A stretch of DNA of 64,000 nt from Candidatus Bathyarchaeia archaeon (GCA_038727135.1 JAVYWL010000003.1:64001-128000), one strand, 5' to 3'. Shown: positions 17,854 to 33,428, counted from the first letter of the stretch. Notes: generated by a model not told the origin, from the sequence alone. Translations and numbers: made by a program.

Positions 17854-17880
17854 TGGTGGGGTAGCTGGGATTTGAACCCA
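17854..17880. repeat. Distal att site: duplicated 3' end of tRNA-Pro
   Basis: TGGTGGGGTAGCTGGGATTTGAACCCA, identical to 32931-32957. Confidence 0.95.
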
Positions 17881-18078
17881 AAATAGCGACGGATGGAGAT
17901 ATCTCCCGCAAAATCCCCTCTTTTTCTATTCACAACATTTTTGAAAGTTTAATTTTTGTTTTTTATTTTATAGCACAAACAGAAACAGAGAATGGAATAA
18001 CGCATCCCTTAAGATTAAGTTTAGTTTTCTCGAGTTTAGATAATGTCAGTGATCTATGAGTTAGAATGTAATGACTGT

Positions 18079-18623
18079 TCACGTAGACATATAGATGCCT
18101 AACGTTACATTTGCATTTAACTGGACAGCGATAAAATCTGGTAATCGCACGAAGCTAAAGAATCCTATCCATAACTTTAGAGCTACAACTTGATATGTTT
18201 TTACTGTGAGTTATAAGTGTTATAGACAATGTAGCGGTCTTGCCACTAAAAGCCACCATTAGGTACACTCCATCCAATACCTATTGATGCGTTGCCGCCA
18301 ACATCTAGTGCAATTGTTATTCGTTCATAGCCTTCTACATTGAAGCAACGCCAAACTGAAGGTACTCCTCCGGGAAGGGCGACGTGAAATCTTTCGCCGT
18401 ACATATATGTTGTGTGAATTATTTTTACGTTTTTTGTTGAGTTTCCTCTTGTACTGAATGCCGAAACCGCCATAACTGTGTCTGTCATGCTTATTTCTCC
18501 ATTATCGTCGTAGTCAAGCCATGGATCATTCCTGACAATTTGCTGCATAGACACCGAAGAGAAAGCCAAAGTTAACAGGATGGAGCTGATCAAAATTGTA
18601 ACTGCAAGCTGTTTCCTATTCAT
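18079..18623 (-). pseudogene. Secreted dockerin/EF-hand-like protein, apparently interrupted
   Basis: Signal peptide, DYDDNGEISMTD loop; TAG at 18246-18248, then a plausible C-terminus TVKTYQVVALKLWIG...VTLGIYMST* in another frame ending at 18079. Confidence 0.55.
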
Positions 18624-18701
18624 AAGGCTTTATCACTTTTTCCTTCTAATCTATCATTTTCAATCATCTTTAAAAAAGAAAAAGGAAGTGTTGAAAAATG
18701 T

Positions 18702-20879
18702 TTAAGGTGAAGATGGAGGCGGCGGTGGTGGCTGCCATGGCGGGCTTGTTTTTCCGAAGTATTTGCAGACGAAGCCTAGGTCTTTGGCGTCTACTTTGCG
18801 GTCGTTGTTGACGTCTGCTCTGAAGCACCATCTTGGGTGCATGTTTGGGCATGGAGTGGAGCCGAAGGCTTTGCCTACTACACCAATATCTTTGGCATCT
18901 ACTTTGCCGTCATAGTTGGTGTCGCATGGTAAATAGTGGCATATCGGCTGTGGCGGCGTAATGTCGTATAATGCGTGGGGGACATAATACCATTTCCATA
19001 GGTTGTAGGCGTATATTCCGCGAAATACCGGATTATAATACCAATCTACTACCCAGTCTCGTTCCCAATGACGTCTCAGCGGTTGGCTTATTGGCACGCT
19101 TGGACAATCCTCGACAGCAAGCAACTGAATATTAAGGTATATTAGGGCCCTCTCCAATCCATCTTTTACTTTAACACCTTTCTCTATAAGTTCATCCATT
19201 GTTGGGTTACAATATCCCTGATAAGCAGCCATCCCCATTTTACTATGATAGAAATTGCTAGCAAAGTCGTGTGGATCTGCATAGCAAAATGTATATCCGA
19301 AAATAAAGAGCGGAGCCCATTTATTTTTTATCGCCCTGAAATATTCTGGAACAGGTAAGGCTACAATATTAACATGGAACTTTGGATTAAGCGCTTCAAT
19401 GTTTTCTTTAATGATCTCTGCAGCTATTCTTCTCGGCTCATTTCCCGTATTATACAGTATTGTTATTGTGAAGCCTGTCCGCCACACGCTTGCCGCTTGA
19501 AATTCCTCTATAGCCTTTGTTAGGTTGTAGGTGTAGCCTTGCACTGGAGCGTAGTAAGGCAAGCATGGGACGATAGCTGTTGGAGGTGCTATAGCCTCAC
19601 CTGCATAGGCTTGCTGTAGAAATCTTTGATAGTCGAATGCGTAGGCAAAGCCTTTCCTAATATGCGAGTAGTTAAAGAAGTCTCTTGGAATACCATCCTC
19701 GCTCCACCATCCTGGAGGATATATTATACCATAAGGGGTTTCTGGATTAACATCAAAAACATAAAATATGGCTTCCACGGCAAGTTCAGGCAGTGGATAC
19801 ATAAATCTCACTCCTGGTTTCTGATAAAATTCAGTTGCGCTAATACCTGGTATATCGATTGATCCGTTAAGGAACCCTTGAATAATTTCTTCCTTTGTCA
19901 AGCCCCATTTTACAGTGAAGGATGTAACCCAACCAGCCGGTTTGGTGCCAAAACATGCAGGGAAGTCCGCTGGCCATCCTCTCCAGTAATCATAGTTTAT
20001 AACAACCCTCCAGTATCTCTCCGGTTCGGATATCGTATCTAACATGAATGGCCCTGTCCCACACATAACTGGGTATGGTTCGTCTAGAGGAGATGTTGGC
20101 AAGTGATGGTAATTTATCCAATCAGTATAGTCGCCCCATTCGCCACCCCATTCCTTCCGGTTAAGCCATCCGATCACGTATTCGTTTATCCAAGCTTTGC
20201 TCAATATGCTTGAGTATGGCTGGCATAAAATCTGTAGGAATGGCGGATATATTGCTGGGAAAACAAAGTTGAACCAGACATGAGTAGCATTTGACTCAAC
20301 AGCGTGATCTATGGCCTTTCCAACGTTAATAATGCCCTCAGGTGTGCTGAGGTTAAATTGTGGACCATATTTTATGAGGTCTTCAGCTCCGGAAGCGTTT
20401 AGGAGAGGGGTGTAAATAGTCCACGCTAGCCCTTCATCGTAAACCATGACACGCTCAAAAGTGTACTCAACATCCTCAGGTTTAAGCGGATAGTAATGCA
20501 ATTCAATGTCACGGAAGTACACTCCAGTCCTTATTTCAAAGATGTACCTATAGAACCACGGCAACCCTTCAGGACTAACGCTTCCTGTAATGTTCTCAAC
20601 AACCCATTTTGTCGCAAGCTGAGGCATAATATGATCGGATGTAACCCTTTCGCCGTCATAGAACAACAAAGTCTCATAGATATTAAAAATTAGCTCAGCA
20701 CTTGCATCATCAAAACACCGCGCTGGATCAACCGTTTCAGGCCCATCAATGGTTCCCTTAATGAGATGGTAGACCTCATTAATTGGAGGAAATGCATACG
20801 CCGGAATAATGCTAAAAACGTTTAGGCTTACTGTTATGACAGTTATCCAAAAAATACCCACCAACAATTTTCTCCTCAT
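18702..20879 (-). CDS. Family 5 (peptide/nickel) ABC substrate-binding protein with C-terminal dockerin-like repeats
   Basis: Start MRRKLL at 20879 after GGAGGAGA; NIYETLL, GTGPF, RKGFAYAFD; DTNYDGKVDAKD and DVNNDRKVDAKD; poly-Pro tail. Confidence 0.88.
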   Translation of the reverse strand: MRRKLLVGIFWITVITVSLNVFSIIPAYAFPPINEVYHLIKGTIDGPETVDPARCFDDASAELIFNIYETLLFYDGERVTSDHIMPQLATKWVVENITGSVSPEGLPWFYRYIFEIRTGVYFRDIELHYYPLKPEDVEYTFERVMVYDEGLAWTIYTPLLNASGAEDLIKYGPQFNLSTPEGIINVGKAIDHAVESNATHVWFNFVFPAIYPPFLQILCQPYSSILSKAWINEYVIGWLNRKEWGGEWGDYTDWINYHHLPTSPLDEPYPVMCGTGPFMLDTISEPERYWRVVINYDYWRGWPADFPACFGTKPAGWVTSFTVKWGLTKEEIIQGFLNGSIDIPGISATEFYQKPGVRFMYPLPELAVEAIFYVFDVNPETPYGIIYPPGWWSEDGIPRDFFNYSHIRKGFAYAFDYQRFLQQAYAGEAIAPPTAIVPCLPYYAPVQGYTYNLTKAIEEFQAASVWRTGFTITILYNTGNEPRRIAAEIIKENIEALNPKFHVNIVALPVPEYFRAIKNKWAPLFIFGYTFCYADPHDFASNFYHSKMGMAAYQGYCNPTMDELIEKGVKVKDGLERALIYLNIQLLAVEDCPSVPISQPLRRHWERDWVVDWYYNPVFRGIYAYNLWKWYYVPHALYDITPPQPICHYLPCDTNYDGKVDAKDIGVVGKAFGSTPCPNMHPRWCFRADVNNDRKVDAKDLGFVCKYFGKTSPPWQPPPPPPSSP

Positions 20880-21323
20880 TTCTCCTCCCAATAATAATGA
20901 GAACTTAAAAGAGAATATAAATTTTTCATGAAAATTTTCGTGTAAAAGGAAGGCGAGAATAGTTACCTTTAAGTTGCCAACTAGAAGAGGGGAGGGCTGA
21001 AGTTTAAGCCTTATCTTAAGGGTTTTCATGATCTTCAGCACGGAAAATTTAGCAACAATTGAAAGTGGTGTTTGACTGCCCCCAGTTATCATCGTGGAAA
21101 TGAAAATAGCTGAATCAAAAATATTAAAGAATGGCTTAAAAAGGCAAATATAAGCGAAAGACCACCACTTCAATTTTCATGAAGCTTTAGCACTCGAGCC
21201 GATTATTTCAAACATAATTTGCATGTGGTTTATAGTGAAATATCTTGGCGATTATCGTGGAAAAACCCTCATCCACGTTTTGGCTCAATTATAGTAAAAC
21301 AGGTAAGTTGAAGTTATATGTAG

Positions 21324-21551
21324 TTATATTGAGTAAAATGATGAAATTCTGCGCCTTATTCTTCTACGGCTAAGCCTGTAACTCGCAAATATTTTTAAGA
21401 GCTGACTATCGGGGATTCTTAAATGTCCTGAAGGCAGCTTTATACACGCTATTAAGCCCTTCTTAATCCATCTGTATATGGTTTGGTCTGTCACGCCAAG
21501 CATATTCGCAACTTGCCTAACCTTATAGTAGGAAGGGTAACGTCTATCCAT
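21324..21551 (-). CDS. Excisionase-like helix-turn-helix (HTH_17/MerR-type) protein
   Basis: YKVRQVANMLGVTDQTIYRWIKKGLI...KLPSGHLRIP. Confidence 0.85.
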   Translation of the reverse strand: MDRRYPSYYKVRQVANMLGVTDQTIYRWIKKGLIACIKLPSGHLRIPDSQLLKIFASYRLSRRRIRRRISSFYSI

Positions 21552-21680
21552 TCGCCATCCTTCCAAGTAATACAAGTTTAACCTTCATTTAAACTTTAAA
21601 CGCCTCCAAAACGCCTTTCAGCTTCGAATTTCAGCCTTTTCCGCGCGAAGTTTAATATTTTCATGCTTCTTTAACGTTAA

Positions 21681-21916
21681 TTGGATAAATATGCCTCCAG
21701 ACGAATACATGAGCATTTGGATATGCTGCTTTTCGGTAAACGCTACAGCTGGCTCCATAGGTGGATGGATGAGCCATGGCGAAGCATGGGCAAAAAGCAT
21801 AGGCAATTGCGACACGACCCATACAGAACGCCTATACAAGCCTTTGTCCTCTCCGGGGGAGATTGGAAAGCGTATGCATCAGCATTATACCATATCATGT
21901 TGGATAAACTTTTAAT
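21681..21916 (+). pseudogene. 5' part of a His-rich hypothetical gene split by the Cas1 element (3' part at 28525-28592)
   Basis: SRRIHEHLD...HRWMDEP...HRQLRHD...HIMLDKLL runs into the target-site duplication; the track's C-terminus is read-through into the terminal repeat. Confidence 0.75.
21903..21916. repeat. Target-site duplication, left copy
   Basis: GATAAACTTTTAAT, identical to 28524-28537 (13 bp if the element ends are taken as symmetric). Confidence 0.9.
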
Positions 21917-22032
21917 CTTTTTCTCTCTCTCTTTACCCTTATACCCCTACACACACCTATTAAATAAACAAAAAAATAAACAAACAATCCATCAATTAAT
22001 CAGTCAATCAGTTAATTAATCAAACAAAAACA
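21917..22032 (+). repeat. Left terminal inverted repeat (imperfect, ~116 bp)
   Basis: Begins CTTTTTCTCTCTCT and ends AATCAAACAAAAACA; both blocks match the reverse complement of 28416-28524. Confidence 0.85.
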
Positions 22033-22151
22033 TAAAGCCTCAATACAAGTTGGAAAGCAGAGGACGGAATCAAAAAGCGTATCGGTTGCCTTAAAAGGGA
22101 ATTCCAATAGGACAGTTGACTGGAAAAAGCGTGTTTAAAGCTCTCTAAGTT

Positions 22152-23702
22152 TTAAAATGGGGTGTTCAGCTGATCCGGCGACACATGGAGATCGAGAGTT
22201 GTAAAAGCGATAATTGGTTGCCTTAAAGCTTGCGTTTCATAAGTGTTGTATTTTTCAATGAATGAAGCTGTTATGGCGTCATACTCTTGTGCAATTAGTA
22301 TGGGTTCAACAGCCATGAATTTTTCTTCTGCATTGTTTACTTCTTTATAGAGATACTCCATGAACTTAGTAAGCTCTTTTGGTGTACATTTTTTGTGGAC
22401 TTTGTATATTAGAACTCGCCCTATTGGGCTCTTTGAGCTATCATGCTGGAAATATTTTTGCAAGATAATTACATCTTTTTCTTGTAATGAAATCTCTACG
22501 GTGATTTTTGGTTTGCTTACTCGCATTATTGTGTAATAGAAATTAGATGGATCAGACCAGACATTGGAGATGTCGGTCGCTATTTTTGGGTAAATCTTAA
22601 AGGCAATATATGTAGGTTTTGATAATGTCTGGAGTTCAAAGTCTGCATCAGTTCCATTAGAAGTAGGTGTATATTTAAGGAGACGCACTTCTTCCCATGG
22701 AATAATTGTGTTTCTAAGGAAGCAATAATCTACTAGGTCTGTTGCGAATTTTTGAGCAATAAGACATGCAGAGAAAATATGATGTGCATTGTCTGATTTG
22801 GTAGTTCTAATTCTAAGGATCTCTTGATAATGTAATAGTTGGATTAGGTCTTTGATTTCAGCTTTATCTTTCTTCGCCTCGATAATAGTTATTGTCTTCT
22901 TTGATTTTTGATAGCCTATACATAGTAAGTCAACAGGCTTTCTTGCTGTTGATCCGACAAAAGTTTGTATCAAAAAGTCATACTCGTTATTTTTACAAGC
23001 CGGAATAAATTGAATAAAATTAGGATCTGCTCGCCCTAATTTATATGCAACTACTGCTTTGACCGGGAACTCGATTTCACCTACCCGTTTTATGTAATTT
23101 TTGAGCGGGAAACCGCTAAGCTTTAGAGGTTTGAACTCAATGGTTTGTTTTGTATGCTGTGTCGAAAATTCTCTATAAAGTAGTTTTATTATTTCCTGTG
23201 CATCTTCCCGTGTGATTGTTTTTACGGCATGGGCAGCCCCACGTTCTTCTCTTTCTAATGTTAAAATTGAGCGTATTATGCCCGCCTCTACGGCTGCATA
23301 AAATTGACTAACAGTTATATTAGCGTCGTTTTTACATAAGTCCGAATGCTCAGGGTGAGGTTCAAAACAAAATCTGTAGGGGTAAACAAAGTTCTCCGAT
23401 TTCCATATTCTTTGGTCGTTGTAAAACGGCTCTTCACGGACTCTATAAACACCATGGATCGTGCTCTCCTGCTTTTCCCTAAGTACATGGAAAAACACAA
23501 CATCTCCCTTTCGCATGCCGATAAGATCCTCTATTATTGACTGCACAGTGTTTGATCCTGCATCGAAATATTGAATTTCCCCTTTCCTTTCACTACCCTC
23601 TCTATTTCCGTATACTCCTATGTAACGGCTAATTTCCCAGTCTCCTTCAGAGATCTGACAAAGGAAAGCACGATCGCTCAAATAATTCCCTCCATTATTC
23701 AA
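22152..23702 (-). CDS. Putative restriction endonuclease: EVE/PUA-like N-terminus + NucS-like PD-(D/E)xK domain
   Basis: GDVVFFHV...GVYRV..EPF....IW....YPYRF; VDLL...IIEAK...QLLHY; overlaps the MTase stop. Confidence 0.65.
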   Translation of the reverse strand: MNNGGNYLSDRAFLCQISEGDWEISRYIGVYGNREGSERKGEIQYFDAGSNTVQSIIEDLIGMRKGDVVFFHVLREKQESTIHGVYRVREEPFYNDQRIWKSENFVYPYRFCFEPHPEHSDLCKNDANITVSQFYAAVEAGIIRSILTLEREERGAAHAVKTITREDAQEIIKLLYREFSTQHTKQTIEFKPLKLSGFPLKNYIKRVGEIEFPVKAVVAYKLGRADPNFIQFIPACKNNEYDFLIQTFVGSTARKPVDLLCIGYQKSKKTITIIEAKKDKAEIKDLIQLLHYQEILRIRTTKSDNAHHIFSACLIAQKFATDLVDYCFLRNTIIPWEEVRLLKYTPTSNGTDADFELQTLSKPTYIAFKIYPKIATDISNVWSDPSNFYYTIMRVSKPKITVEISLQEKDVIILQKYFQHDSSKSPIGRVLIYKVHKKCTPKELTKFMEYLYKEVNNAEEKFMAVEPILIAQEYDAITASFIEKYNTYETQALRQPIIAFTTLDLHVSPDQLNTPF

Positions 23703-24513
23703 TTAGCTTCTTTTGCAGTATGTTAGCTTCTTCGATGAGTCTTCTTTTTGCAATTTCACAATAATTCCTGTCTATTTCTACTCCTATTCCTTTCCTTTTA
23801 AGAAGTGCACATGCTACTAAAGTGGTTCCACTACCGAGAAATGGATCAAGCACGGTATCCCCTACAAAGCTGAACAGTTTGATACATCTTTTTGGAAGTT
23901 CAAGAGGGAATGGTGAGGGATGATGCACTCTTTCAGGATTTTCACCTGAAAATGTCCATACGCCGTTAGTCCAATCAATAAACTCATCTTTTGTTATATC
24001 CGAGATTCCATTTTTCATTTTTTTCCACTGATGTTTGTAGAGCACTACTACGACCTCAACCGGTGCTATAACATATGGTGCTGAAGCGCTAAGCCATGAT
24101 CCCCATGCAGTTCTTCTAGATATGTTCTGTTCATTCCATATTATCGTTGAGAAATACTTCCATCCTAATTTTTTGGCAATGCTAACAATATCTAAGTAAA
24201 CACTTTGAAAACCTTCATCCCTTCTCCCTTTGCTTTTGTCGAGTGGTATGTTTAAACACATTCTGCCATCGGGTTTTATTAACTCTAAAGCTTTCTGAAG
24301 CCATTTTTCAGTGAATTCAAGGTACTTTTCATATGGAATATCATCTCTAAAAGATCCATAATGGATATCAACGTTATAAGGAGGAGACGTAACGATCAAA
24401 TCTATGGTATTTTTATGTATAAAATCCGTTGTCAGAAAATCGTCGTTTAAAATTATTATTTCATCATTTTTTCTGAAGAATACTTTTTCGTGCTGTACCC
24501 GAAGCTCTTCCAA
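23695..24513 (-). CDS. Site-specific DNA methyltransferase, beta class (N4-C/N6-A family)
   Basis: Motif IV TSPPY precedes HPSPFP and motif I DPFLGSGTT. Confidence 0.92.
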   Translation of the reverse strand: MEELRVQHEKVFFRKNDEIIILNDDFLTTDFIHKNTIDLIVTSPPYNVDIHYGSFRDDIPYEKYLEFTEKWLQKALELIKPDGRMCLNIPLDKSKGRRDEGFQSVYLDIVSIAKKLGWKYFSTIIWNEQNISRRTAWGSWLSASAPYVIAPVEVVVVLYKHQWKKMKNGISDITKDEFIDWTNGVWTFSGENPERVHHPSPFPLELPKRCIKLFSFVGDTVLDPFLGSGTTLVACALLKRKGIGVEIDRNYCEIAKRRLIEEANILQKKLIE

Positions 24514-24679
24514 TTATTTGTCTCCACACCACACTTTTTCAGTGAATCTATGTTTTTATCGTTAATAATCTTTCTGATACTCATCTAGGTCGCGCTTCCT
24601 TTTCCAGTCATACTTTGCAAGTCCAATGTTTAACTTCAATGAAACATGGTTTTGTTGCAAATATTAGAAGCATGGTCTT

Positions 24680-24895
24680 TTAGCCTTCATAACTTATCTC
24701 CTCATAGAACACATCAAACAACTCACAAGTAACCTTCATTATTTGCACAGCAATCCACATCTCAGCTTCAACGGACAAATTGCAGTGTTCAGCAATCTCC
24801 CTAGCAAGCTGTCGGCTCATGGCTTCAATATCATTCAGCGAAGGCTTCTCTGAACCTTTCATATGCAGTATCCACCACCCGCCTTTCCTCTTCAC
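24680..24895 (-). CDS. Small hypothetical protein (start probably later, near MSRQLA)
   Basis: Last ORF of an overlapping minus-strand series. Confidence 0.4.
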   Translation of the reverse strand: MKRKGGWWILHMKGSEKPSLNDIEAMSRQLAREIAEHCNLSVEAEMWIAVQIMKVTCELFDVFYEEISYEG

Positions 24896-25118
24896 TTAAA
24901 CTTTCATAGTCACGTTTAACTAGCCAACGCACATAATCAGCCTCTCTTAAGCCTCTATACCTAGCCATGACGTGAAAGAGAATACGATCTTCTAAACGAG
25001 TCCACCACATATTCCACCTAATGCCACGCCTCGTAACCTTCCACTTTCCAACACGTTTCACAGGCTTTTCCTTCGCTTTAGCTAAAAGCTGAAAAATGGT
25101 TTTCCAGTCAAGCGACAC
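24831..25118 (-). CDS. Hypothetical protein, possible ribbon-helix-helix domain
   Basis: Abuts the upstream stop; ARYRGLREADYVRWLVKR resembles RHH helices. Confidence 0.55.
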   Translation of the reverse strand: MSLDWKTIFQLLAKAKEKPVKRVGKWKVTRRGIRWNMWWTRLEDRILFHVMARYRGLREADYVRWLVKRDYESLSEEERRVVDTAYERFREAFAE

Positions 25119-25631
25119 CTACTTCACCATCCTTCCAAGGGCGACCCTCTTCTTAACGAAACGCTCATGTTCAACCTTCAACCTAACATAGGCTTCATGC
25201 CACTCCCGCTCCCAATATTCAACCCTACGCCTAGAAGCCTCAACACGCTTCAAAATCCACGCCTCAACCTCACGCCATTCCTCTTCAGACCATTCCTCTT
25301 CAAAAGCCTGAGCACGCACACGCTTGTAATAACGCTCCCATTCTTCTAATCTATCCTTGTTATAGGCTCTACGTTGAGCACAATAATACACACGCCTATA
25401 AAGCTGGTCGATAAGCTGTTTCTCCCTAATATACTCCTCTAGGGTGACAGGCACTTCTGGTATGCCTAGCCTTTCAGCCTCAACCTTCAAGGCTTGAATT
25501 TGTTTTTGAGAGCCAACCCACTTCCTTCCAGCCCAGTGGCTGAAAGCAGTCAATAACTGCTGGAAAGATGTAATCTTTGAAACATCAACTACCTGCTCAA
25601 ACCTCTGAAACGCCTCAGGAAACTTGTCCAC
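25119..25631 (-). CDS. Hypothetical protein with charged helical C-terminus
   Basis: Likely GTG start MDKFPEAFQRFE at 25631, overlapping the upstream stop. Confidence 0.65.
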   Translation of the reverse strand: MDKFPEAFQRFEQVVDVSKITSFQQLLTAFSHWAGRKWVGSQKQIQALKVEAERLGIPEVPVTLEEYIREKQLIDQLYRRVYYCAQRRAYNKDRLEEWERYYKRVRAQAFEEEWSEEEWREVEAWILKRVEASRRRVEYWEREWHEAYVRLKVEHERFVKKRVALGRMVK

Positions 25632-26136
25632 CCTTAACCACCACTCCACGCTTTTCCAAGCCAGTGTCATACAAAACAAGAACCACTTTGTCTGGGAATG
25701 TGGTTGGCTCGTAGCCCTCCAAGTAGCCTACCACTTGTTGAGGTGGTCTGCCAACTTTATTGCTTGTTCTTAAAGTGGCTTGTCCACGCCTAACAGTCCA
25801 CCAGAAAAAGTTCCAGTCTAAATGTTCAGTGTCAAGTAGAATTTTTAGGTATTCTTTGAATGGGCGTCTGCTGAAGCACCAAGCTCTATAACTGCCTTCG
25901 CAGTCGCTTGTTATGTAGATGTCGCCTAGCCTATACTTGTATTGCACGTCAGCAAGCGTTTGTTTAGCTTGTTCCAATGTGCAGTTTTCCAAATCCCATA
26001 AAATTATGTGTTCATCTTCACCAACTTTGCTTGTCACACCTTCTAGGGTTTGAGTTTTAGAAATCATGAAGAAGACTGTGACGGTGCCAAGCTTGAAAAG
26101 AAAATTCAGTCTAGTCGGCAGTTTCATTAAGGTCAC
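25615..26136 (-). CDS. Putative small AEP-superfamily primase-polymerase-like protein
   Basis: HIILWDLE (hhhDhE), YITSDCEGSYRAW (motif II-like, His replaced by Arg), TLRTSNK (motif III-like). Confidence 0.5.
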   Translation of the reverse strand: MTLMKLPTRLNFLFKLGTVTVFFMISKTQTLEGVTSKVGEDEHIILWDLENCTLEQAKQTLADVQYKYRLGDIYITSDCEGSYRAWCFSRRPFKEYLKILLDTEHLDWNFFWWTVRRGQATLRTSNKVGRPPQQVVGYLEGYEPTTFPDKVVLVLYDTGLEKRGVVVKGGQVS

Positions 26137-26438
26137 CTATTTTTACGCTTTAACAACTCCTTCGCAGTCCTAATGTAGTCGTCCACAGTCATGGGTCTAA
26201 ACAGAATACTTAATTGAAATCTAATGTCGTCTTCAGATATTCCATTTTCTAGCATTTCAGCAACTTTTCTGATGTTTGCTTCTCGCCTCACTGAGCCGTG
26301 TCCACGGTCAAACTGTGTTAAGAATGGCGGGTTGCTTTTTTCTGTGGTTGACGTAGCCTTATCCTTTTCTGCACATTCATCAGAGCAATAAGTCAACCTA
26401 TCGGGGATTTTCTTGCCACAAACTTTGCAGGTCTTCAT
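26133..26438 (-). CDS. Zn-finger + HTH-like protein
   Basis: CKVCGKKI......YCSDEC; 4-bp overlaps with both neighbours. Confidence 0.7.
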   Translation of the reverse strand: MKTCKVCGKKIPDRLTYCSDECAEKDKATSTTEKSNPPFLTQFDRGHGSVRREANIRKVAEMLENGISEDDIRFQLSILFRPMTVDDYIRTAKELLKRKNR

Positions 26439-26632
26439 TCGCTATATCCCCTCTTCTGCAAAACCCCTAGAGCCTTCTTAGTTTCTTTGTCAAAGTAGTT
26501 TAGGGATGCAAGTTCTTTTTTGATGGCTCTCCTCACGAAGTCGCTTACGTCTTCACCTCGTGCCTTGCAGACTTGTTGAAGTAACCGTTTTTCATTTTCA
26601 TTTAGTCTTACCCCAATGATTGCATTTAACAT
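26435..26632 (-). CDS. CopG/ribbon-helix-helix regulator
   Basis: IIGVRLNENEKRLL..VC..RGEDVSDFVRRAI. Confidence 0.8.
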   Translation of the reverse strand: MLNAIIGVRLNENEKRLLQQVCKARGEDVSDFVRRAIKKELASLNYFDKETKKALGVLQKRGYSE

Positions 26633-26674
26633 AGTTTATCACCGCACAACACTTTTATTTTGGAGTAGGTACCT

Positions 26675-27094
26675 ATGTTTCGGTCGGGAAATTTGGGGGT
26701 CAAGCGGGAAAAAGCCTATAAGTACCAGCTTGTCTTTAAGGGGGAACCCTTAGATTTGGAAGAGGTTAGAGCTAAACTTTCAAGTTTTGGTTATCATGTG
26801 GCAATTCATGAAAAACCCGCTGGGCAACATCATTTAGAGGCTTTTGTGGGGGACTGGTTTCTCCAATTTTATGGAACTGGCACGGTAAATGTTTTTGTCA
26901 AAGACAAGGACGACGTTTTTAAAGTCTCAAAATTTTTGGGTCAACTGGGCTGGTTCATGTTGGAAAAATTTAATCCTAGGCTTGCACTTTTGTGGGAGGT
27001 TTTTGGAAAATCGGAGGAAGGGAAAAGTGTTGAATGTTATCGTGAAGTCTTCAATGTCGTTAAGGCTTTTGAGCTTTTTTGGTTAAAATCATAA
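26675..27094 (+). CDS. Hypothetical protein
   Basis: 139-aa ORF divergent from the RHH gene, GGAGTAGG upstream. Confidence 0.5.
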   Translation: MFRSGNLGVKREKAYKYQLVFKGEPLDLEEVRAKLSSFGYHVAIHEKPAGQHHLEAFVGDWFLQFYGTGTVNVFVKDKDDVFKVSKFLGQLGWFMLEKFNPRLALLWEVFGKSEEGKSVECYREVFNVVKAFELFWLKS

Positions 27095-27176
27095 TTGATG
27101 TTTTTAGGGGTGTTTATGGTGAAAAATATCACATACTACGTTGATTTTATATATTTTGAGTATGTTAGTTTAAAGT

Positions 27177-27344
27177 ATGGGTGAAGAAGAAAATATTGCT
27201 TATATAAGTGTGCGGGGTTATCGGTGTCTGCGTTGCGGTCACACATGGGTTCCTAGGAAAAATTCTAAGAGCCCACCTAAAGTGTGTCCAAAATGCAAAA
27301 GTCCTTATTGGGATAAGCCTCGTAGGCGTAAGGTTAAAGAGTGA
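27177..27344 (+). CDS. Small Zn-ribbon protein (55 aa), absent from the ORF track
   Basis: MGEEENIAYISVRGYRCLRCGHTWVPRKNSKSPPKVCPKCKSPYWDKPRRRKVKE*; TTTTATATA box ~30 nt upstream. Confidence 0.8.
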   Translation: MGEEENIAYISVRGYRCLRCGHTWVPRKNSKSPPKVCPKCKSPYWDKPRRRKVKE

Positions 27345-28377
27345 CTATTCTGGGTTGCCATTGTTTTGTTTCGTTTCTTATGTGTTTTGCTAGGAGTAGG
27401 GCTTCTTCTGTGATTAGTGTGTCTAGGGTCTGCTGTTTTCCGTGTTTTATTCTTGGGATTTTGACTTTTTGGTTGAAGAGGTTGTTAAGTTCTTCTGCCA
27501 GCTTGTCTGCTTCGTATTCTAGTAGGTGTATGCGTTTTCCCATTCTTAAATGCACTATGAAGTCTGTGACTGCGACAAAATCGTTTTTGTGGAGTTTTGT
27601 TCTGCGTTCTATTATGAAGTTGTCTATTATGTGGCGGTATAATTCCATGAAGTCGCAGGCTAGGCTTGGTTTGCCGTGTTGCATGGCGTGTAAGAAGCCT
27701 AGGTATGGTTCAAGTTTTGCTTTTAATAGTGCCTTATATACTCTGCATTTTAGCACATAATAGCCAAAGTTGAAAACATTGTTAAGTCCATCATAGGCTT
27801 TAAAGCCCACTCGCTTTTCTGGTCTTATTTTTTCTGGGAAAAGGGTGAATATTTGTTTGAAGTAGTGTTGTGAGGCTTTTCCTTCTATTTGGTTTAGCTT
27901 ATACCTTATGTCTTGGGGTTTTTCTGCTTTTAGGCTGTCGATTTTGCTTTTTAAAGCGGTTAGGTTAAGCTGTTCTAGTCCGTATTTCCTTAAGACCATG
28001 TTTTGGGCTTCTATTTTGGTTTTTACTATTGTTTTTGCTATTTCTACGCCTTTCTGGTTTTTTGTGGCTTCGTATTGCATTATTCTGGTTTTTACGTGGC
28101 TGTCGTCTTCTAGGCTTTTTAAAATGGCTACTACTCTGTTTCGTCTGGTCATTATGTAAGTGTCAATGTTCCAAAGTGCCAAATCTATTAAGGCGTCAAC
28201 ACTTACATAACTGCCTGATTTTAGTATGCATTCGCCTATTTCCTTTTCAAAGTGTGGGTAACGCTCCACCCTCCCGTCTTTGAGGCGGAGTTCAAAACAT
28301 CCTTCCGCCCTGCCCAGATAACTGCCATACTTGTCTAGTTGCAGTTTTAGTGTTTTGACTGGTCGCATTTCAGCCAC
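27334..28377 (-). CDS. cas1: Stand-alone Cas1 integrase (putative casposase)
   Basis: GSYLG N-terminus, catalytic E (QIEGKAS..YF), NFGY, EPYLGFLH, SLACDFMELYR; no cas2 or array in the window. Confidence 0.93.
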   Translation of the reverse strand: MAEMRPVKTLKLQLDKYGSYLGRAEGCFELRLKDGRVERYPHFEKEIGECILKSGSYVSVDALIDLALWNIDTYIMTRRNRVVAILKSLEDDSHVKTRIMQYEATKNQKGVEIAKTIVKTKIEAQNMVLRKYGLEQLNLTALKSKIDSLKAEKPQDIRYKLNQIEGKASQHYFKQIFTLFPEKIRPEKRVGFKAYDGLNNVFNFGYYVLKCRVYKALLKAKLEPYLGFLHAMQHGKPSLACDFMELYRHIIDNFIIERRTKLHKNDFVAVTDFIVHLRMGKRIHLLEYEADKLAEELNNLFNQKVKIPRIKHGKQQTLDTLITEEALLLAKHIRNETKQWQPRIVTL

Positions 28378-28415
28378 CTATTTACCTAGAAGTATATTAC
28401 TTTTGGGTATATATT

Positions 28416-28524
28416 TGTTTTTGTTTGATTGTTTGTTTGATTGTTTGAGGGTTTGTTTGATTGATTGATGCATCTCTTTGTATTGGGTGGTGGGTGTGGG
28501 TGGATTGGGTAGAGAGAGAAAAAG
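28416..28524 (-). repeat. Right terminal inverted repeat (~109 bp)
   Basis: TGTTTTTGTTTGATT...AGAGAGAGAAAAAG with internal TTTG/ATTG tetramer runs. Confidence 0.85.
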
Positions 28525-28537
28525 ATAAACTTTTAAT
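28524..28537. repeat. Target-site duplication, right copy
   Basis: GATAAACTTTTAAT. Confidence 0.9.
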
Positions 28538-28592
28538 AAATGCTGCCTCGGTCGAATTATTATACTTCATAATTAAGACATTGAAATCCTAA
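28525..28592 (+). pseudogene. 3' part of the gene interrupted by the Cas1 element
   Basis: In-frame continuation DKLLINAASVELLYFIIKTLKS*, stopping 3 nt before the convergent ORF end at 28596. Confidence 0.7.
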
Positions 28593-28595
28593 TTT

Positions 28596-29159
28596 TCATC
28601 GCCCAACTTGTTCTTGAGTAAAGTACTTCTTAAGCTCTTCTTCAAAATTTTTTAATTCTTCCATCAACTTTCTTGAGACTAATTCATAAAGTTTCGGATC
28701 CAAAAACTCTGAAGGTTTTTCCATGAATTCTTTGAGAGTATTAAAAAAGGTTTGTCGAAACTGTATATTCATTGGATCTTTGCCAGCTGAGTATGCGGAC
28801 ACTTCAAGACACATGTTAATGGTTTTTGAAAAATCTAAAGTGCTTCCTCTACACAAGTACAAGTAGAAGAATAACGACATTGCCAACTTTATATGTTCCC
28901 TAATCTTTTCCTCGATAGGCTGGAAGACTTTTAAGGCGAAAAGTCCCTTATTCAAACTTTCTTTTTCTTTGAGATTTATAAGCACTCCGCTCTGTATCAT
29001 AACCTTTATTTTGCGATAAAGCTGAGATGTCGATACTTTTGCATTCTTTCTTATTTCATCCCAACTTTGGGGCTGCTTCTTTATTAATTCCCATAAAATG
29101 CGCGCGTCTGAGCTTAATTCTTCCCCCACTTGTCCTCTCATTTTTGCAAAAACCTCCAC
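28596..29159 (-). CDS. Winged-helix DNA-binding protein (candidate element regulator)
   Basis: SWDEIRKNAKVSTSQLYRKIKVMIQSGVL; divergent from the replication/integration operon. Confidence 0.65.
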   Translation of the reverse strand: MEVFAKMRGQVGEELSSDARILWELIKKQPQSWDEIRKNAKVSTSQLYRKIKVMIQSGVLINLKEKESLNKGLFALKVFQPIEEKIREHIKLAMSLFFYLYLCRGSTLDFSKTINMCLEVSAYSAGKDPMNIQFRQTFFNTLKEFMEKPSEFLDPKLYELVSRKLMEELKNFEEELKKYFTQEQVGR

Positions 29160-29231
29160 GTAGATCTCAGCTTACATTTGCAGTTTTGAAAGGAAAACTA
29201 GAAAAGCCTTTCTCATCAAACGCGCATCTCG

Positions 29232-29792
29232 GTGAATAAAATGTCGAAAATTGATGCTGAGCTAATAAAGCCTTTGCCAGAGCCAAGTGAGGGCGACTAC
29301 GTCATTGAAAAGGTTGAGCGCGTCGATCAGACGCCGCTTCGAGGACTACAAGGCTGGAGGGTTACGCTTCGCAATGCTAAGGATGGTAGCTTATGCGCTA
29401 CGATGCTATGGAAAAGAGAGCAAGTCGGGCCGAATTCTAAGCTTGGCTCTTTTCTTTTGGCTCTCGGTAAAGACGCTGATACATGGACAGGTAAAATTAT
29501 TAGGCTAGCATCTTGGAAGCCTAGAGAAAGGAAGGTTGTAATGGTTGCTGACAAAGTAAAAGACATAGTAACTGCAGCTGGAGCCACAGCTAAAACTGAT
29601 CTGGTTATGGCTTGCAAACAACGGCTAATCGACATCCTTGAACGCGGCAAAATCTACAGCGTTGCCGAAATTAAAGGGTTAAGCCCAGACTATAAGGAGG
29701 ACATTATTGCTTCAGCCCTTGAATTGCTGGTCAGCGAAGGAAAAGTTTTCAAAATTCCTACGACACCTACGCGATATTATTATGAGGGCTAA
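29232..29792 (+). CDS. Hypothetical protein: beta-rich (OB-like) N-terminus + wHTH C-terminus
   Basis: GDYVIEKVE...NSKLGSFL..LG....W.GK.IR; ALELLVSEGKVFK. Confidence 0.6.
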   Translation: MNKMSKIDAELIKPLPEPSEGDYVIEKVERVDQTPLRGLQGWRVTLRNAKDGSLCATMLWKREQVGPNSKLGSFLLALGKDADTWTGKIIRLASWKPRERKVVMVADKVKDIVTAAGATAKTDLVMACKQRLIDILERGKIYSVAEIKGLSPDYKEDIIASALELLVSEGKVFKIPTTPTRYYYEG

Positions 29793-29794
29793 GG

Positions 29795-30892
29795 ATGCGA
29801 TTTCAGAAGGCTTATTTGATTAGGCTTAAGCTTCTGGAAGGGTTTCTCTCACACAAGCTTTCTTATCTCAAACAGTTATGTATCTCTAGTGATATATGCA
29901 CTTCTGAGAAGACATCGCATGCCTTGAGAAAGTTTCCGCCCGGGCTTCTTCCCACAGCCATAAGTGTTGAACTTGCCCTTTACAGCGGCTACATTGAGCC
30001 ATACGACCCCTTAAGCATGCTTATAATTGCGCCTGTTGGAAGCGGGAAAACGGAGCTGCTTAAGGCTTACGCAGAAAACAGGGGCGTAGCGCTTTACAAT
30101 GATTTCACAAGCTATGGGCTTACGGGATTACTTGGACAAATCCAAGCCGGGCTTATACGCCACGTCATGGTTGCTGATTTGGTCCGACTTACAGCAAGAG
30201 GAAACCCCGTTTGGCATCAAATACTTTTAACGCTTAACGCTTTGATGGAGGAAGGTGTCCAAAACATAGACACCTTTCATATACGCTTTCACTCCCCAAC
30301 ACCAGTTAAGGCAGGCGTTGTAGCTGCACTAACAACTGATGAATGGAAAGCCCGCCGAAAACAATGGATGCGCTTAGGCTTCCTAAGCCGAGCCGTACCG
30401 ATAAGCTACCACATCGCGCCTGAAGATATAATCCGCGGAGAACAAGCCCTATACAAGGCTGAACCCGCGTTCAAACCCGTAAAGGTGAACCTTCCAGAAA
30501 AGCCTCTAAGCGTAAACGTTCCTGAAAGGCATAAAGAAGCCTTGATGCGTCTGGGAAGGGTTATAGCGGCTGTAAACCGTGACGAGACGCGTTTCAGATC
30601 GCACCGACATGTCATAGCAATGGCTAAGGCTTCAGCCCTACGCGAAAACAGAACCGAAGTAAACGAGGAAGACGTTAAATTGCTTAAAGCCCTAAGCGTC
30701 TTATGGCTAAGCCCATACAGCGGAGACGAGCCAAGCTTCCGCATAATGCTCACCCTACCAGCAACATCAAACCAAATACTAAGCGAGCTTTCAAACCTCT
30801 ACAGTCCAGCCACAATTTACAGGCGGCTGAACTACCTTGAAAACTTAAAGGCCGTAAGGCGGGATGGCGACAAATGGGTTCCAAACCTCTAG
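29795..30892 (+). CDS. AAA+ ATPase, MCM-like helicase candidate with C-terminal wHTH (start probably ~29920)
   Basis: Walker A APVGSGKT, LNALMEEG, FLSR (Arg finger-like), RSHRHVIAMAKASA (sensor-2-like), SPATIYRRL. Confidence 0.7.
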   Translation: MRFQKAYLIRLKLLEGFLSHKLSYLKQLCISSDICTSEKTSHALRKFPPGLLPTAISVELALYSGYIEPYDPLSMLIIAPVGSGKTELLKAYAENRGVALYNDFTSYGLTGLLGQIQAGLIRHVMVADLVRLTARGNPVWHQILLTLNALMEEGVQNIDTFHIRFHSPTPVKAGVVAALTTDEWKARRKQWMRLGFLSRAVPISYHIAPEDIIRGEQALYKAEPAFKPVKVNLPEKPLSVNVPERHKEALMRLGRVIAAVNRDETRFRSHRHVIAMAKASALRENRTEVNEEDVKLLKALSVLWLSPYSGDEPSFRIMLTLPATSNQILSELSNLYSPATIYRRLNYLENLKAVRRDGDKWVPNL

Positions 30893-31212
30893 TCTACCTT
30901 CAACTAACAAGCCTAGAATCCTTGATTGAAGAGCTAAAGCATAGAAGCCTGTCTGAAGCTAGGCTTTCAGAATGGATCCAGCGTCGCGACATGCTTGAAC
31001 GCCGAAAGTTTAGAGTTACAGCCTTAGACCCGTATTATGGGCTTATACTACGCTACGAAAGCGTATATTATCAGGGCTTAGCTGTTGACGGCGAAACTGC
31101 AGAGCTTAAAAAATCTAGGGAAGAAGCCAAAAAGCGCATTACTGAAAGGCTTGAGGCTGAGGGAATACGCCTACTTGAAGGCGAATACCACGCTGGAAAG
31201 GCTGAATGGTAA
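30874..31212 (+). CDS. Hypothetical protein
   Basis: Overlaps the ATPase stop, same operon. Confidence 0.6.
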   Translation: MGSKPLVYLQLTSLESLIEELKHRSLSEARLSEWIQRRDMLERRKFRVTALDPYYGLILRYESVYYQGLAVDGETAELKKSREEAKKRITERLEAEGIRLLEGEYHAGKAEW

Positions 31213-31279
31213 ACAAGCAGCCTAGACCCGTTAACGCTAAAATTTTCATTGTCTACGGGTTGCATTTGGCATCTTTGGG

Positions 31280-31762
31280 TTGCCATTACAATGGGACTAT
31301 CGCTCAATCCTCGCTGATTCGGGGGCTGCCATAGTGAAAATCGTTAAAGCCTTAAAAGAGCCTAATTCCTCAAACAAAGACGTTTTCAGGCTTCTCTTCA
31401 GAAACCACAAGACCATTCACGCTTCAAGGCTCCTTTTTAGTTGGATGCTGGATAATGGCGGTTACGCAACACCATCCCAGCTAAGCCAATTCGCATGGAA
31501 ACTACAAAAAGGTAAGGTTGAGGAGGGCTACCGTTATCGGCGTTCAAGCCTTTACAGAACAGTTTTGAGGCGCCTCTTAGACTTCGGCTTCATAAACCAG
31601 CAGCAAATATATGATAAGGAAACGGGCAAAATTGTCCAAGCCTACGTTCTAATAAAGCAGCCCATACCAAAACGCGCTCCTCTCAGCGGAGCCAGCTTCT
31701 GGAAGCTGGCATGGCACATATGCAAAGCGTGGAATGAACAACTCGAAAAGGCGAAAGGCTAA
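31280..31762 (+). CDS. Hypothetical wHTH-like protein
   Basis: YRRSSLYRTVLRRLLDFGFI; directly upstream of the integrase. Confidence 0.65.
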   Translation: MPLQWDYRSILADSGAAIVKIVKALKEPNSSNKDVFRLLFRNHKTIHASRLLFSWMLDNGGYATPSQLSQFAWKLQKGKVEEGYRYRRSSLYRTVLRRLLDFGFINQQQIYDKETGKIVQAYVLIKQPIPKRAPLSGASFWKLAWHICKAWNEQLEKAKG

Positions 31763-31769
31763 GGCGGAC

Positions 31770-32900
31770 ATGACAACGCCAATCCATTGTCCACAGTGCG
31801 GTTCAACGCTTTTTTGGAAGGATGGAATGCGTTATCTATTTGATGGCTCAGCTGTTCAGCGTTATGTTTGCAGAAATTGTGGACACCGCTTCTCTGAGCC
31901 GAGCAATAAAATTGAAAAGCAAAACCGCAAGCCCATACTTTTGGAGAGGGCTCCCTTGACCCTTAAAGCCCAAACAGAAAAGCGGGCTGCGGGAGCCACA
32001 GAAAAGCCAAGCATTGCGGAGCTTCAGGGAAAAATCGTTGAGTTTCTATGGTGGATGAAGAAGCAAGGATATAAAGAGACAACGATAGCTGGTAAAGGAA
32101 AAAGGCTTCAGAGGCTTGTTAGGCTTGGAGCCAACCTTTTAGATCCTGAAAGCGTAAAAAAAACAATAGCGAGGCAAAACTGGTGCGATTCAGGAAAGGA
32201 AACAACGGCATACGCTTATGACCTCTTTGCAAAATACGCTGGGATTAAATGGGAGAGACCAACCTACAAGCCTCCGAGAAAGCTTCCATTCATACCACAT
32301 GAAAGGGAGATTGACGACCTAATAGCTGGCTATAATAATAAACATGTGGTAGCGTTCCTTCAAATTGCAAAGGAAACTGGAGCAAGGGCTGGAGAAATCT
32401 TCGATCTAAAATGGACGGACATAGACTTTGAAAGGAAAACGTTGTCGATAACCCCTGAGAAGGGAAGCGATCCTAGAATCTTGAGGATTTCAGACAAGCT
32501 AATAGCCATGCTTCAAAACATGCCAAAAAAGAGTGAAAGGGTATTCAGCAATTACAAAAGCTTAAAAACCCTAAGCTTAGCCTTCCAGCGCTATCGCAAA
32601 AGAATAGCCTTCAGGCTTGGAAATCCGAGACTTCTAAGGATAAGCTTCCACACGCTTCGCCATTGGAAAGCCACAATGGAGTATCATAGAACAAAAGACA
32701 TACTTCACGTAATGCAGATGCTCGGACATAGAAACATCAAAAACACGCTGATATATACCCAGCTCGTCAAATTTGAAGGTGAAGACGAGTACATTTGCAG
32801 GGCGGCTAAAACAGTTGAACAAGCTTCAGCCCTAATCGAGGCTGGATTTGAATACGTCTGCGACATTGACGGAATCAAGCTGTTTAGAAAACGCAAGTAG
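31770..32900 (+). CDS. Tyrosine recombinase/integrase with N-terminal Zn ribbon
   Basis: CPQCGS...CRNC; TGARAGE, EKG, FHTLRH, LGH, IYTQL catalytic set intact. Confidence 0.93.
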   Translation: MTTPIHCPQCGSTLFWKDGMRYLFDGSAVQRYVCRNCGHRFSEPSNKIEKQNRKPILLERAPLTLKAQTEKRAAGATEKPSIAELQGKIVEFLWWMKKQGYKETTIAGKGKRLQRLVRLGANLLDPESVKKTIARQNWCDSGKETTAYAYDLFAKYAGIKWERPTYKPPRKLPFIPHEREIDDLIAGYNNKHVVAFLQIAKETGARAGEIFDLKWTDIDFERKTLSITPEKGSDPRILRISDKLIAMLQNMPKKSERVFSNYKSLKTLSLAFQRYRKRIAFRLGNPRLLRISFHTLRHWKATMEYHRTKDILHVMQMLGHRNIKNTLIYTQLVKFEGEDEYICRAAKTVEQASALIEAGFEYVCDIDGIKLFRKRK

Positions 32901-32930
32901 CTTACACCTGCTGGGGTTTTATCCAAAGGA

Positions 32931-33009
32931 TGGTGGGGTAGCTGGGATTTGAACCCAGGATCGCCAGCGCCCCAGGCTGGTATCCTAGACCAAACTAGAC
33001 GACTACCCC
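32931..33009 (-). tRNA. tRNA-Pro(GGG), CCA encoded; integration target
   Basis: GGGGTAG...CCAGC-CTGGGGC-GCTGG...GGTTCAAATCC...CTACCCC-A-CCA. Confidence 0.95.
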
Positions 33010-33331: not shown

Positions 33332-33428
33332 TGGCGGGCCCGCCGGGAATTGAACCCGGGACCCCCGGGTTTCTCTGTGCTTTATAGCTTAAAAGCCCGG
33401 TGCTCTATCCTTACTGAGCTACGGGCCC
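33332..33428 (-). tRNA. tRNA-Lys(TTT) with 19-nt canonical 37/38 intron (33371-33389)
   Basis: GGGCCCG...CCGGG-CTTTTA[intron]A-CCCGG...GGTTCAATTCC...CGGGCCC-G-CCA. Confidence 0.93.

Follow-up and report, generated by a model that had tools for sequence, protein, structure and literature searches.

A probable casposon-like element of Candidatus Bathyarchaeia that pairs Cas1 with a putative mini primase-polymerase instead of a family-B DNA polymerase

We analysed a 64,000-nucleotide stretch of DNA (the window; GCA_038727135.1, JAVYWL010000003.1:64001-128000) from an uncultured archaeon (Candidatus Bathyarchaeia). Our data indicate that positions 21917-28523, 6607 bp, are most probably an integrated casposon-like mobile element that is mobilised by Cas1 and that encodes a small protein resembling archaeo-eukaryotic primases (a mini-AEP) instead of a family-B DNA polymerase (PolB); we put the probability of this reading at about 80%. 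A sequence-only reading of the same DNA had proposed a compact, PolB-less Cas1 transposon, and the core of that proposal is supported by the terminal inverted repeats (TIRs), the target site duplication (TSD), the cas1 gene and the lack of PolB. The mini-AEP module, by which the element would not be replicase-less, was not foreseen there; the conserved palindromic target, the tandem arrays and the size of the family are likewise new relative to the earlier account.

The element ends in a 14-nt tip, CTTTTTCTCTCTCT, which lies at 21917-21930 and recurs as its reverse complement at 28511-28524, directly inside 14-bp direct repeats. With up to one mismatch allowed, the tip has two matches in the window, both at the element ends, compared with 0.06 expected, and 0 of 100 shuffled sequences contained two or more matches. 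With up to two mismatches allowed, no other paired occurrence was found across the 1.55-Mb, 7-contig genome, so that these TIRs do not surround a conventional transposase elsewhere in the genome, an outcome that had been raised as a challenge to the transposon. A TIR-like 14-mer on contig C1 (C1:48104), near a cas1 fragment, has the wrong orientation and was taken as a chance match. Inverted similarity of the two ends extends over approximately 125 nt and is imperfect, with 77% mean column identity over 152 columns. The direct repeats lie where the sequence-only reading had placed them, at 21903-21916 and 28524-28537. Its 13-bp TSD and 6608-bp element stand as one option, while 14 bp and 6607 bp are equally countable since the G at 28524 can be assigned to either TIR or repeat. 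No RNA families were found in an Rfam scan of 21000-29500.

We found direct evidence of mobility in metagenomes. Logan contigs from four hot-spring metagenome runs of four studies were aligned to 21403-29037 (minimum likeness 90), and in one contig from run X1 position 21902 runs directly into 28524, the repeat being present only once, which is the kind of empty site for which a search of reads had been proposed earlier. This contig is 592 nt long at a depth of 5.85, with 76 nt on its shorter side, and 14 letters fit either side of the joint. Because 27 letters and 19 gaps separate it from the window, it represents a related sequence from another strain. In the other runs, the element ends continue into different flanks at loose contig ends, and these flanks again open with a similar AT-rich motif. 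Furthermore, the block at 22161-24678 beside the left TIR, which holds the nuclease and methyltransferase genes, is skipped in X1 and X6 and replaced by 363 other letters in X7; since contigs of three runs skip or replace approximately this region, it is an exchangeable cargo slot. Positions 22168-24462 had no contig cover in most runs, which is not evidence of absence. The window element is a real mobile element. No circular or free linear form was seen among the metagenome contigs and the retrieved loci described below.

The same ends and repeats characterise related elements. Exact repeats of 12-15 bp abut the TIRs in all 19 elements that have both ends and flanks, a set comprising the window element, an element on contig C1 of the same genome, and all loci with two ends and flanks on one contig. 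The repeat measures 15 bp in 11 elements, 14 bp in four, 13 bp in three and 12 bp in one. When left and right ends of different elements were paired as a control, 26 of 342 pairs reached 12 bp, and several such pairs that we inspected came from elements sharing one repeat sequence. Since the repeat occurs in 19 of 19 elements compared with 26 of 342 mismatched pairs, it is a true duplication. The earlier expectation that homologous cas1 loci would be bounded by similar TIRs and repeats of the same length was therefore borne out in every testable copy.

The duplicated site is a conserved 15-bp quasi-palindrome, about GRYTAAAWTTTAAYC, that is similar between independent insertions (e.g., GATTAAAATTTAATC, GGTTAAATTTTAACC, GACTAAATTTTAATC and GATAAAACTTTACCC); conceivably, it could be an archaeal BRE/TATA promoter. 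Because independent insertions have this quasi-palindrome in common, insertion is site-specific; the TSD is a conserved, family-wide site and not a random target, which the earlier account had not anticipated. Since one base per side can often be read as either repeat or TIR, the true stagger is 13-15 bp. We also tried a degenerate 15-mer target pattern, which gave 0 exact sites in the genome and 35 sites at one mismatch compared with 15-25 in shuffled sequences. This pattern was set aside as too crude because it misses the window's own site; it shows only that ideal palindromes are rare.

Elements of this family also insert in tandem. At locus L088 (loci carry our own L numbers), the 13-mer ATAAAAGTTTTAT occurs at 2012-2024, 11781-11793 and 15962-15974, and these copies enclose first a 9.8-kb element whose tips are of the CTTTTTCTC type and then a 4.2-kb element whose tips are of the CCCACACAC type. 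The Cas1 encoded by the latter is 65% identical to that of the C1 element. Across the family there are two types of TIR tip, CTTTTTCTC and CCCACAC/CCCAAACCC, and two Cas1 subclades. Outside the repeat of L007, L011, L012, L017 and L019 lies sequence that resembles element ends (GTTTGGGTTTGGG on the left, CCCCACACAC on the right), which tandem insertion explains, and at L007 a second cas1 stands immediately to the left of the element. L103 was considered as a further tandem and rejected: its left flank resembles a short TIR tip, but no element genes lie there, and it is possibly a remnant.

The family is large and apparently undescribed so far. We found 1687 relatives of the element's Cas1 at E ≤0.001, of which the best 120 are 64-80% identical to it (its own protein aside), are 329-362 aa long and lie mostly on contigs of 1-10 kb. 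Species genomes contributed 22 loci: 19 from Bathyarchaeia/Bathyarchaeota, one from a Thermoproteota single-cell genome, one Bathyarchaeia-type and one 'Levybacteria'. The last (L006/L091, MFNH01000027.1) is an archaeal element contig in a bin of Candidatus Levybacteria, of the bacterial candidate phyla radiation (CPR), and is probably a case of mis-binning and not of a bacterial host. Metagenomes hold at least 407 relatives, from which 80 loci were retrieved. Among 251 genomes sampled from the class, 19 encode a family Cas1 (E ≤1e-40), the genome of the window being one of them, with a patchy distribution across families; a genome can contain up to four, and several are fragmentary or have internal stops. 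TIRs of 33-161 nt, mostly 95-100% identical, bracket cas1 in each of the 12 genome loci whose sequence extends far enough to either side, and these elements span 3.6-8.7 kb (3.6-9.8 kb over the family). A crude clustering of ORFs (open reading frames) from 16 elements found Cas1 in 16 of 16 (broken in four), which makes it the sole gene family common to all, followed by families that we call F2 (14), F3 (14), F4 (11) and a ribbon-helix-helix (RHH) protein (5). Several contigs, i.e., L104 (9161 bp), L133 (7202 bp), L102, L099, L092 and L116, begin and/or end inside or at TIRs; these may be assembly breaks at a repeat present at many sites, or a free linear form.

We next turn to gene content (Table 1). 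Besides Cas1, the ORFs of the window element that match known families are the methyltransferase, the 516-aa EVE/NucS-like protein, the RHH protein and two Zn-ribbon proteins, and the remainder have no match. A Pfam search of the element's ORFs found no PolB, Cas2, DDE, HUH, or tyrosine or serine recombinase. The earlier statement that Cas1 is the only recognisable recombinase inside the element agrees with this result, as does, within the element's ORFs and the genome scans, the reported lack of cas2, a CRISPR array, a DDE/HUH transposase and PolB. Likewise, Pfam revealed no recombinase or polymerase in 47 further ORFs (at least 120 aa) of 15 related elements; the same method recovered PF03175 in a family-1 casposon (L040). 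Cargo in the 15 related elements includes a ThaI restriction enzyme with a methyltransferase, a Shedu SduA_C nuclease, a Fic domain, an SDH protease and others. F2 has no match in Pfam or NCBIfam, and its scores in an atlas search (0.75-0.76) do not exceed chance; that it assists in replication is our guess. An RHH gene sits at the same position in several relatives (family F5), and the window's own RHH did not cluster with F5.

Table 1. Features of the Cas1 element, in window coordinates.
Feature	Position	Strand	Remarks
Left TSD copy, GATAAACTTTTAAT (14 bp)	21903..21916	.	One copy only in the empty-site contig
Left TIR	21917..22043	+	14 perfect terminal nt, then imperfect CAAACAA-type subterminal repeats
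Cargo 516-aa protein, likely a restriction-type nuclease	22152..23702	-	Sub-threshold Pfam: weak EVE and NucS-like
Cargo N4/N6 DNA methyltransferase	23695..24513	-	PF01555, E 7e-47
Two small overlapping ORFs, 71 and 95 aa	24680..25118	-	No family match
Core gene F2, ~170 aa from GTG at residue 17	25119..25679	-	Conserved N-terminal domain
Core gene F3, 173 aa, mini-AEP-like	25615..26136	-	Fold and profile evidence
Core gene F4, 101-aa Zn-ribbon and helical domain protein	26133..26438	-	
Ribbon-helix-helix (CopG-type) regulator	26435..26632	-	PF01402
139-aa ORF and 55-aa Zn-ribbon ORF, upstream of cas1, variable regulator-like slot	26675..27344	+	
Cas1, 347 aa, probable start M4	27334..28377	-	PF01867, TIGR00287
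Right TIR	28397..28523	-	
Right TSD copy, 14 bp	28524..28537	.	Repeat match and empty site

We assigned F3 to the primase-polymerase superfamily as a putative mini-AEP with predicted activity, since fold and transitive sequence evidence (Pfam PF24387 via the relative P0339) agree. An AlphaFold model of F3 built from 29 sequences reached a pLDDT of 87.6. Foldseek returned nothing at E ≤0.001 for this model, with a best match at E 0.014 (African swine fever virus (ASFV) PrimPol). Comparison with 48,161 chains by VIA-align placed AEP primases and PrimPols in 12 of the top 15 rows (Z 5.0-6.5, approximately 105-113 residues aligned), including LigD PolDom (6.1), archaeal PriS (5.7), Pol-alpha primase (5.5), ASFV PrimPol (5.4), RepB' (5.3), human PrimPol (5.2) and CAPP (7NQD, 5.1). 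A profile of F3 matched 748 cluster representatives at E ≤0.001, the best 150 of which are 74-276 aa long with no fused form among them. One match, P0339, scores E 2e-24 to the F3 profile and 34 bits to PF24387 ('AEP-like'; cut-off 27); overall, PF24387 was matched by 5 of 46 scanned F3 relatives, by P0339 above and by the other four below the cut-off. Residues D48, E50, D78, R84 and D107 are invariant in 29 F3 sequences, and D48xE50, S82..R84 and D107 are candidate AEP motifs I, II and III. To our knowledge, F3 relatives of 165-185 aa would be among the smallest of the AEP superfamily. Of 102 loci, 59 have F3 no more than 3 kb from cas1, and among the 50 loci of at least 5 kb the number is 39; most of the 11 exceptions in the latter group are decayed or carry their cas1 at the edge of a contig.

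Cas1 of the window element matches PF01867 at E 6e-47 and TIGR00287 with 159 bits over its full length. The sequence-only reading had described intact E/H/E catalytic residues; the triad is indeed intact, but its third residue is an aspartate, and E165, H230 and D242 are invariant in 36 family members. The best sequence match in the PDB is Archaeoglobus fulgidus Cas1 (4N06). A predicted structure (pLDDT 75.5) matched 4N06 (E 2.4e-16, TM 0.56) and the Methanosarcina mazei casposase 6OPM (E 1.5e-14, TM 0.58) about equally in Foldseek, which did not separate CRISPR Cas1 from casposase. The earlier account had also treated the missing C-terminal helix-turn-helix (HTH) as a separation from casposases. 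This argument fails: according to the consulted portion of PMC8464041, family-1 casposases lack a C-terminal HTH as well, so HTH absence is not diagnostic.

We built a Cas1 tree from 40 Cas1 proteins of 400 genomes of the phylum (Thermoproteota), three family-1 casposases, the Cas1 of locus L042 and 12 element Cas1 proteins; among casposases, it covers family 1. Cas2, Cas4 or Csa1 lies within approximately 600 bp in 33 of the 40 sampled Thermoproteota loci. The three family-1 casposases were found beside EF-2, one of them (L040) with a PF03175 polymerase nearby. The element Cas1 proteins form a clade with 100/100 support on a long stem (1.47), in a polytomy with CRISPR-associated clades. The casposases were placed elsewhere, with L042 and L070, and the support of the separating branch is only 55/66; an approximately unbiased (AU) test did not reject a clade of element Cas1 and family-1 casposases (p 0.34; p 0.49 with L070). 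The tree suggests that the element clade is distinct from family-1 casposases, with a provisional deep position. L042 (G028:C19) and L070 (G395:C1:1462755-1463669) encode Cas1 of family f15, a code shared with the three EF-2-casposase genomes. L070 has a second copy 18 kb away and no Cas2, Cas4 or Csa1 within approximately 600 bp, and the neighbours of L042 include a radical-SAM gene; both loci may be further casposon variants.

A bolder reading, which we consider possible but hold only tentatively, is that these elements are a Cas1-transposon lineage that did not come from known casposases, a sister or offshoot of archaeal type I CRISPR Cas1, and a living model of the step from transposon to repeat array. 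This suggestion takes in the regeneration of the target at each insertion, the repeat-element-repeat arrays, Cas1 acting without Cas2 and the linkage to a minimal AEP.

The genome that hosts the element is 94.7% complete and contains no match to PF09827 (Cas2), and no run of at least three exact 20-mers at 45-110-bp spacing was found in the assembly, where CRISPR arrays can stay unassembled. Its three full-length Cas1 genes, in the window, on contig C5 (70% identical) and on C1 (54%), all lie in such elements, and a fourth cas1 match is a 69-residue fragment at C1:49090-49296. C5 is a 6187-bp contig (L002/L028) that ends inside a matching right subterminal TIR, and its cas1 has the opposite orientation relative to the core module. 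The C1 element (802014-806437, 4.4 kb) has 82-nt TIRs at 97.6%, CCCAAACCC-type tips and its own 14-bp repeat, GGTTAAATTTTAAG.

In the window, the Cas1 element is nested in a separate tyrosine-integrase element of approximately 15 kb at tRNA-Pro (17854-33009). The outer element is delimited by 27-bp direct repeats at 17854-17880 and 32931-32957, which correspond to the 3' part of tRNA-Pro (32931-33009, minus strand), and its integrase gene (31734-32900) abuts the tRNA; it thus has attachment (att) repeats and no TIRs. It also contains an HTH_17 (excisionase-like) gene (21324-21575), a gene for an AAA-lid protein (29795-30892) and an odd cargo gene (18702-21173), whose 823-aa product combines an SBP_bac_5 solute-binding domain with a dockerin at the C-terminus. 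At 33332-33428, ARAGORN reported a 97-nt 'tRNA-???' with a two-letter anticodon, which may be an intron-containing or otherwise unusual tRNA.

How might such an element move? Casposases and CRISPR spacer integration have been shown to work by strand joining followed by gap repair. By the same route, Cas1, the presumed integrase, would attach the TIRs by their 3' ends (…GAGAGAAAAAG-3') to both strands of the quasi-palindromic AT-rich target, approximately 13-15 bp apart, and gap repair would then duplicate the target. The conserved module, i.e., a 165-185-aa AEP-like protein and three small partners, would serve to prime the element's synthesis or to copy it, perhaps starting from an excised form; both the catalytic activity of the AEP-like protein in replicating the element and the transposition intermediate are inferred. 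The remaining genes, here those for a methyltransferase and a nuclease, are exchangeable cargo. As the target is restored with every insertion, more elements can integrate next to an existing one, which gives rise to tandem arrays.

Several observations weigh against a Cas1-mobilised element with a mini-AEP. Cas1 of the CRISPR type ordinarily works together with Cas2, which it requires and which is missing here. The element's Cas1 scores 85 bits against the CRISPR Cas1 4N06 and 55 bits against the casposase 6OPM; since the former is higher, membership of the casposase clade is not demonstrated. The empty site is one contig in one of four runs, approximately 90-94% identical to the flanks, and the TIRs of the window copy are far more diverged than in most relatives, which may point to an old insertion. 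In principle, a recombinase acting in trans could also use a conserved palindromic repeat beside inverted arms as its att core. As for F3, the window protein has no direct match in Pfam or NCBIfam, its structural Z of 5-6.5 is middling by the tool's own note, and it carries an arginine where the motif-II histidine is usual. Finally, the C1 element of the same genome lacks a clear F3 (a 96-aa segment, E 0.0085) yet has near-perfect TIRs. Since this element lacks a clear F3, F3 is dispensable in cis for insertion, and the C1 element may depend on other copies for replication.

We therefore considered other explanations of the same data. The element could mainly be an episome, i.e., a small AEP-replicated plasmid- or virus-like replicon that uses Cas1 only for parking in the chromosome at a specific site, as integrative plasmids do. 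Its set of RHH, Zn-ribbon, mini-AEP and F2 genes resembles, from general knowledge, small archaeal plasmid backbones, and many family contigs are 4-9 kb long with several bounded by TIRs (e.g., L104 and L133). However, assemblers also stop contigs at TIRs when one element has many contexts, neither a circular nor a free linear form was seen, and no capsid, partition or conjugation genes were recognised in the scanned ORFs of the element and its relatives. Multiple and decayed copies per genome look transposon-like, and we judge a mainly episomal life improbable; it also overlaps with mobilisation by Cas1, casposons being thought to behave alike.

It is less probable still, in our estimate, that a recombinase in trans (a host Xer-type enzyme or a helper tyrosine integrase, such as the one at 31734-32900) makes the ends while Cas1 serves another purpose, e.g., hampering CRISPR adaptation. 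Such a recombinase would fit the conserved palindrome with inverted arms, formally similar to an att core with recombinase-binding arms, the position of the window copy within a tyrosine-integrase element and a Cas1 that is at least as CRISPR-like as casposase-like. But the integrase element has a different att of its own (the 27-bp tRNA-Pro repeat, without TIRs), relatives lie in unrelated contexts, and no integrase was found in the element's ORFs or the 47 further ORFs scanned. As att arms, TIRs of 100-160 nt with almost 100% identity would be unusual, Cas1 is universally conserved with intact catalytic residues, and the host genome lacks a CRISPR-Cas adaptation module that could be hampered. 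We give hardly any credence to a degenerate CRISPR-Cas remnant or an inverted repeat made by chance or by assembly. Cas1 does match TIGR00287, the generic model of CRISPR Cas1, from end to end, but the empty site was observed, all 19 copies that allow the test, taken from different genomes and metagenomes, share the architecture, Cas2, array and effector are missing, and the TIR 14-mer is far above chance.

If the element is indeed a casposon-like transposon with a mini-AEP, a Cas1 integrase can be combined with a different and very small replication module, while pairing with PolB was part of the definition of casposons as self-synthesizing transposons. In form, the duplicated short palindrome resembles a CRISPR repeat more closely than the tRNA and gene-end targets of known casposons do. 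Furthermore, a 347-aa Cas1, TIR tips of approximately 15 nt and a 15-bp target would make a compact test system for how the stagger is measured without Cas2 and how arrays arise. Since the cargo comprises restriction-modification genes, a Shedu nuclease domain and Fic, these elements are carriers of defence genes in a major class of uncultured archaea.

In the literature searched, with subscription journals outside its scope, we found no description of a PolB-less Cas1 element with a mini-AEP and none of casposons in Bathyarchaeia; one mention of 'Bathyarchaeota' was unrelated in substance. In the text available, a study of Bathyarchaeia viruses mentions Cas1 only in passing (PMC10848311), and Cas1-encoding viruses correspond to Streptomyces family-3 casposons (PMC5894146).

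Casposons were reportedly defined by Krupovic et al. in 2014 by Cas1, PolB, TIRs and a TSD. The window element has a Cas1-family gene inside, TIRs and, within the usual range of approximately 14-15 bp, a TSD of 14 bp; a PolB gene was found neither in its ORFs nor in the 47 ORFs of relatives, so it is not a casposon by definition. A passage of a 2023 review describes PolB as conserved in all identified casposons. Family-1 casposons (Nitrosopumilus, at the 3' end of the EF-2 gene) are similar to the present family in a Cas1 of approximately 330-350 aa without a C-terminal HTH, in TIRs, in a TSD of approximately 14-15 bp, in site-specific insertion and in archaeal hosts of the same phylum. Unlike family 1, which has a protein-primed PolB (PF03175 in L040) and targets a gene 3' end, the present family is smaller, has a putative mini-AEP module and no PolB, and targets a free-standing 15-bp quasi-palindrome; the Cas1 proteins of the two form separate long-branched clades.

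With casposon families 2-4 (Aciduliprofundum boonei; Methanosarcina mazei, 6OPM), the element shares a lone Cas1 homologue as integrase (here predicted) and a 14-15-bp TSD. Excerpts of PMC9939771 give a 15-bp TSD for the A. boonei casposase, which agrees with the 13-15 bp found here, and, together with parts of PMC4779613, describe tandem insertions that share one TSD and cohabitation with integrase elements. An RNA-primed PolB, HNH and HTH proteins and a casposase C-terminal HTH, all features of families 2-4, are absent from the present element. Tyrosine-integrase elements differ in that PF00589 was found neither in the element nor in the scanned ORFs of its relatives. The CRISPR adaptation module is comparable in Cas1 fold and catalytic triad, in the duplication of a partly palindromic repeat and in repeat-insert-repeat arrays; unlike it, the present element has no Cas2, Cas4, Csa1, leader or array, and its 'spacer' is a TIR-bounded element of 4-10 kb. 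Finally, archaeal AEP/PrimPol plasmid replicons and CAPP have an AEP-fold protein, to which F3 as a putative AEP and presumed replicase would correspond. Unlike theirs, F3 stands alone at 165-185 aa, with no fused helicase, PriCT or Zn-binding domain, and CAPP (7NQD) shows that a linkage of Cas1 and Prim-Pol is possible.

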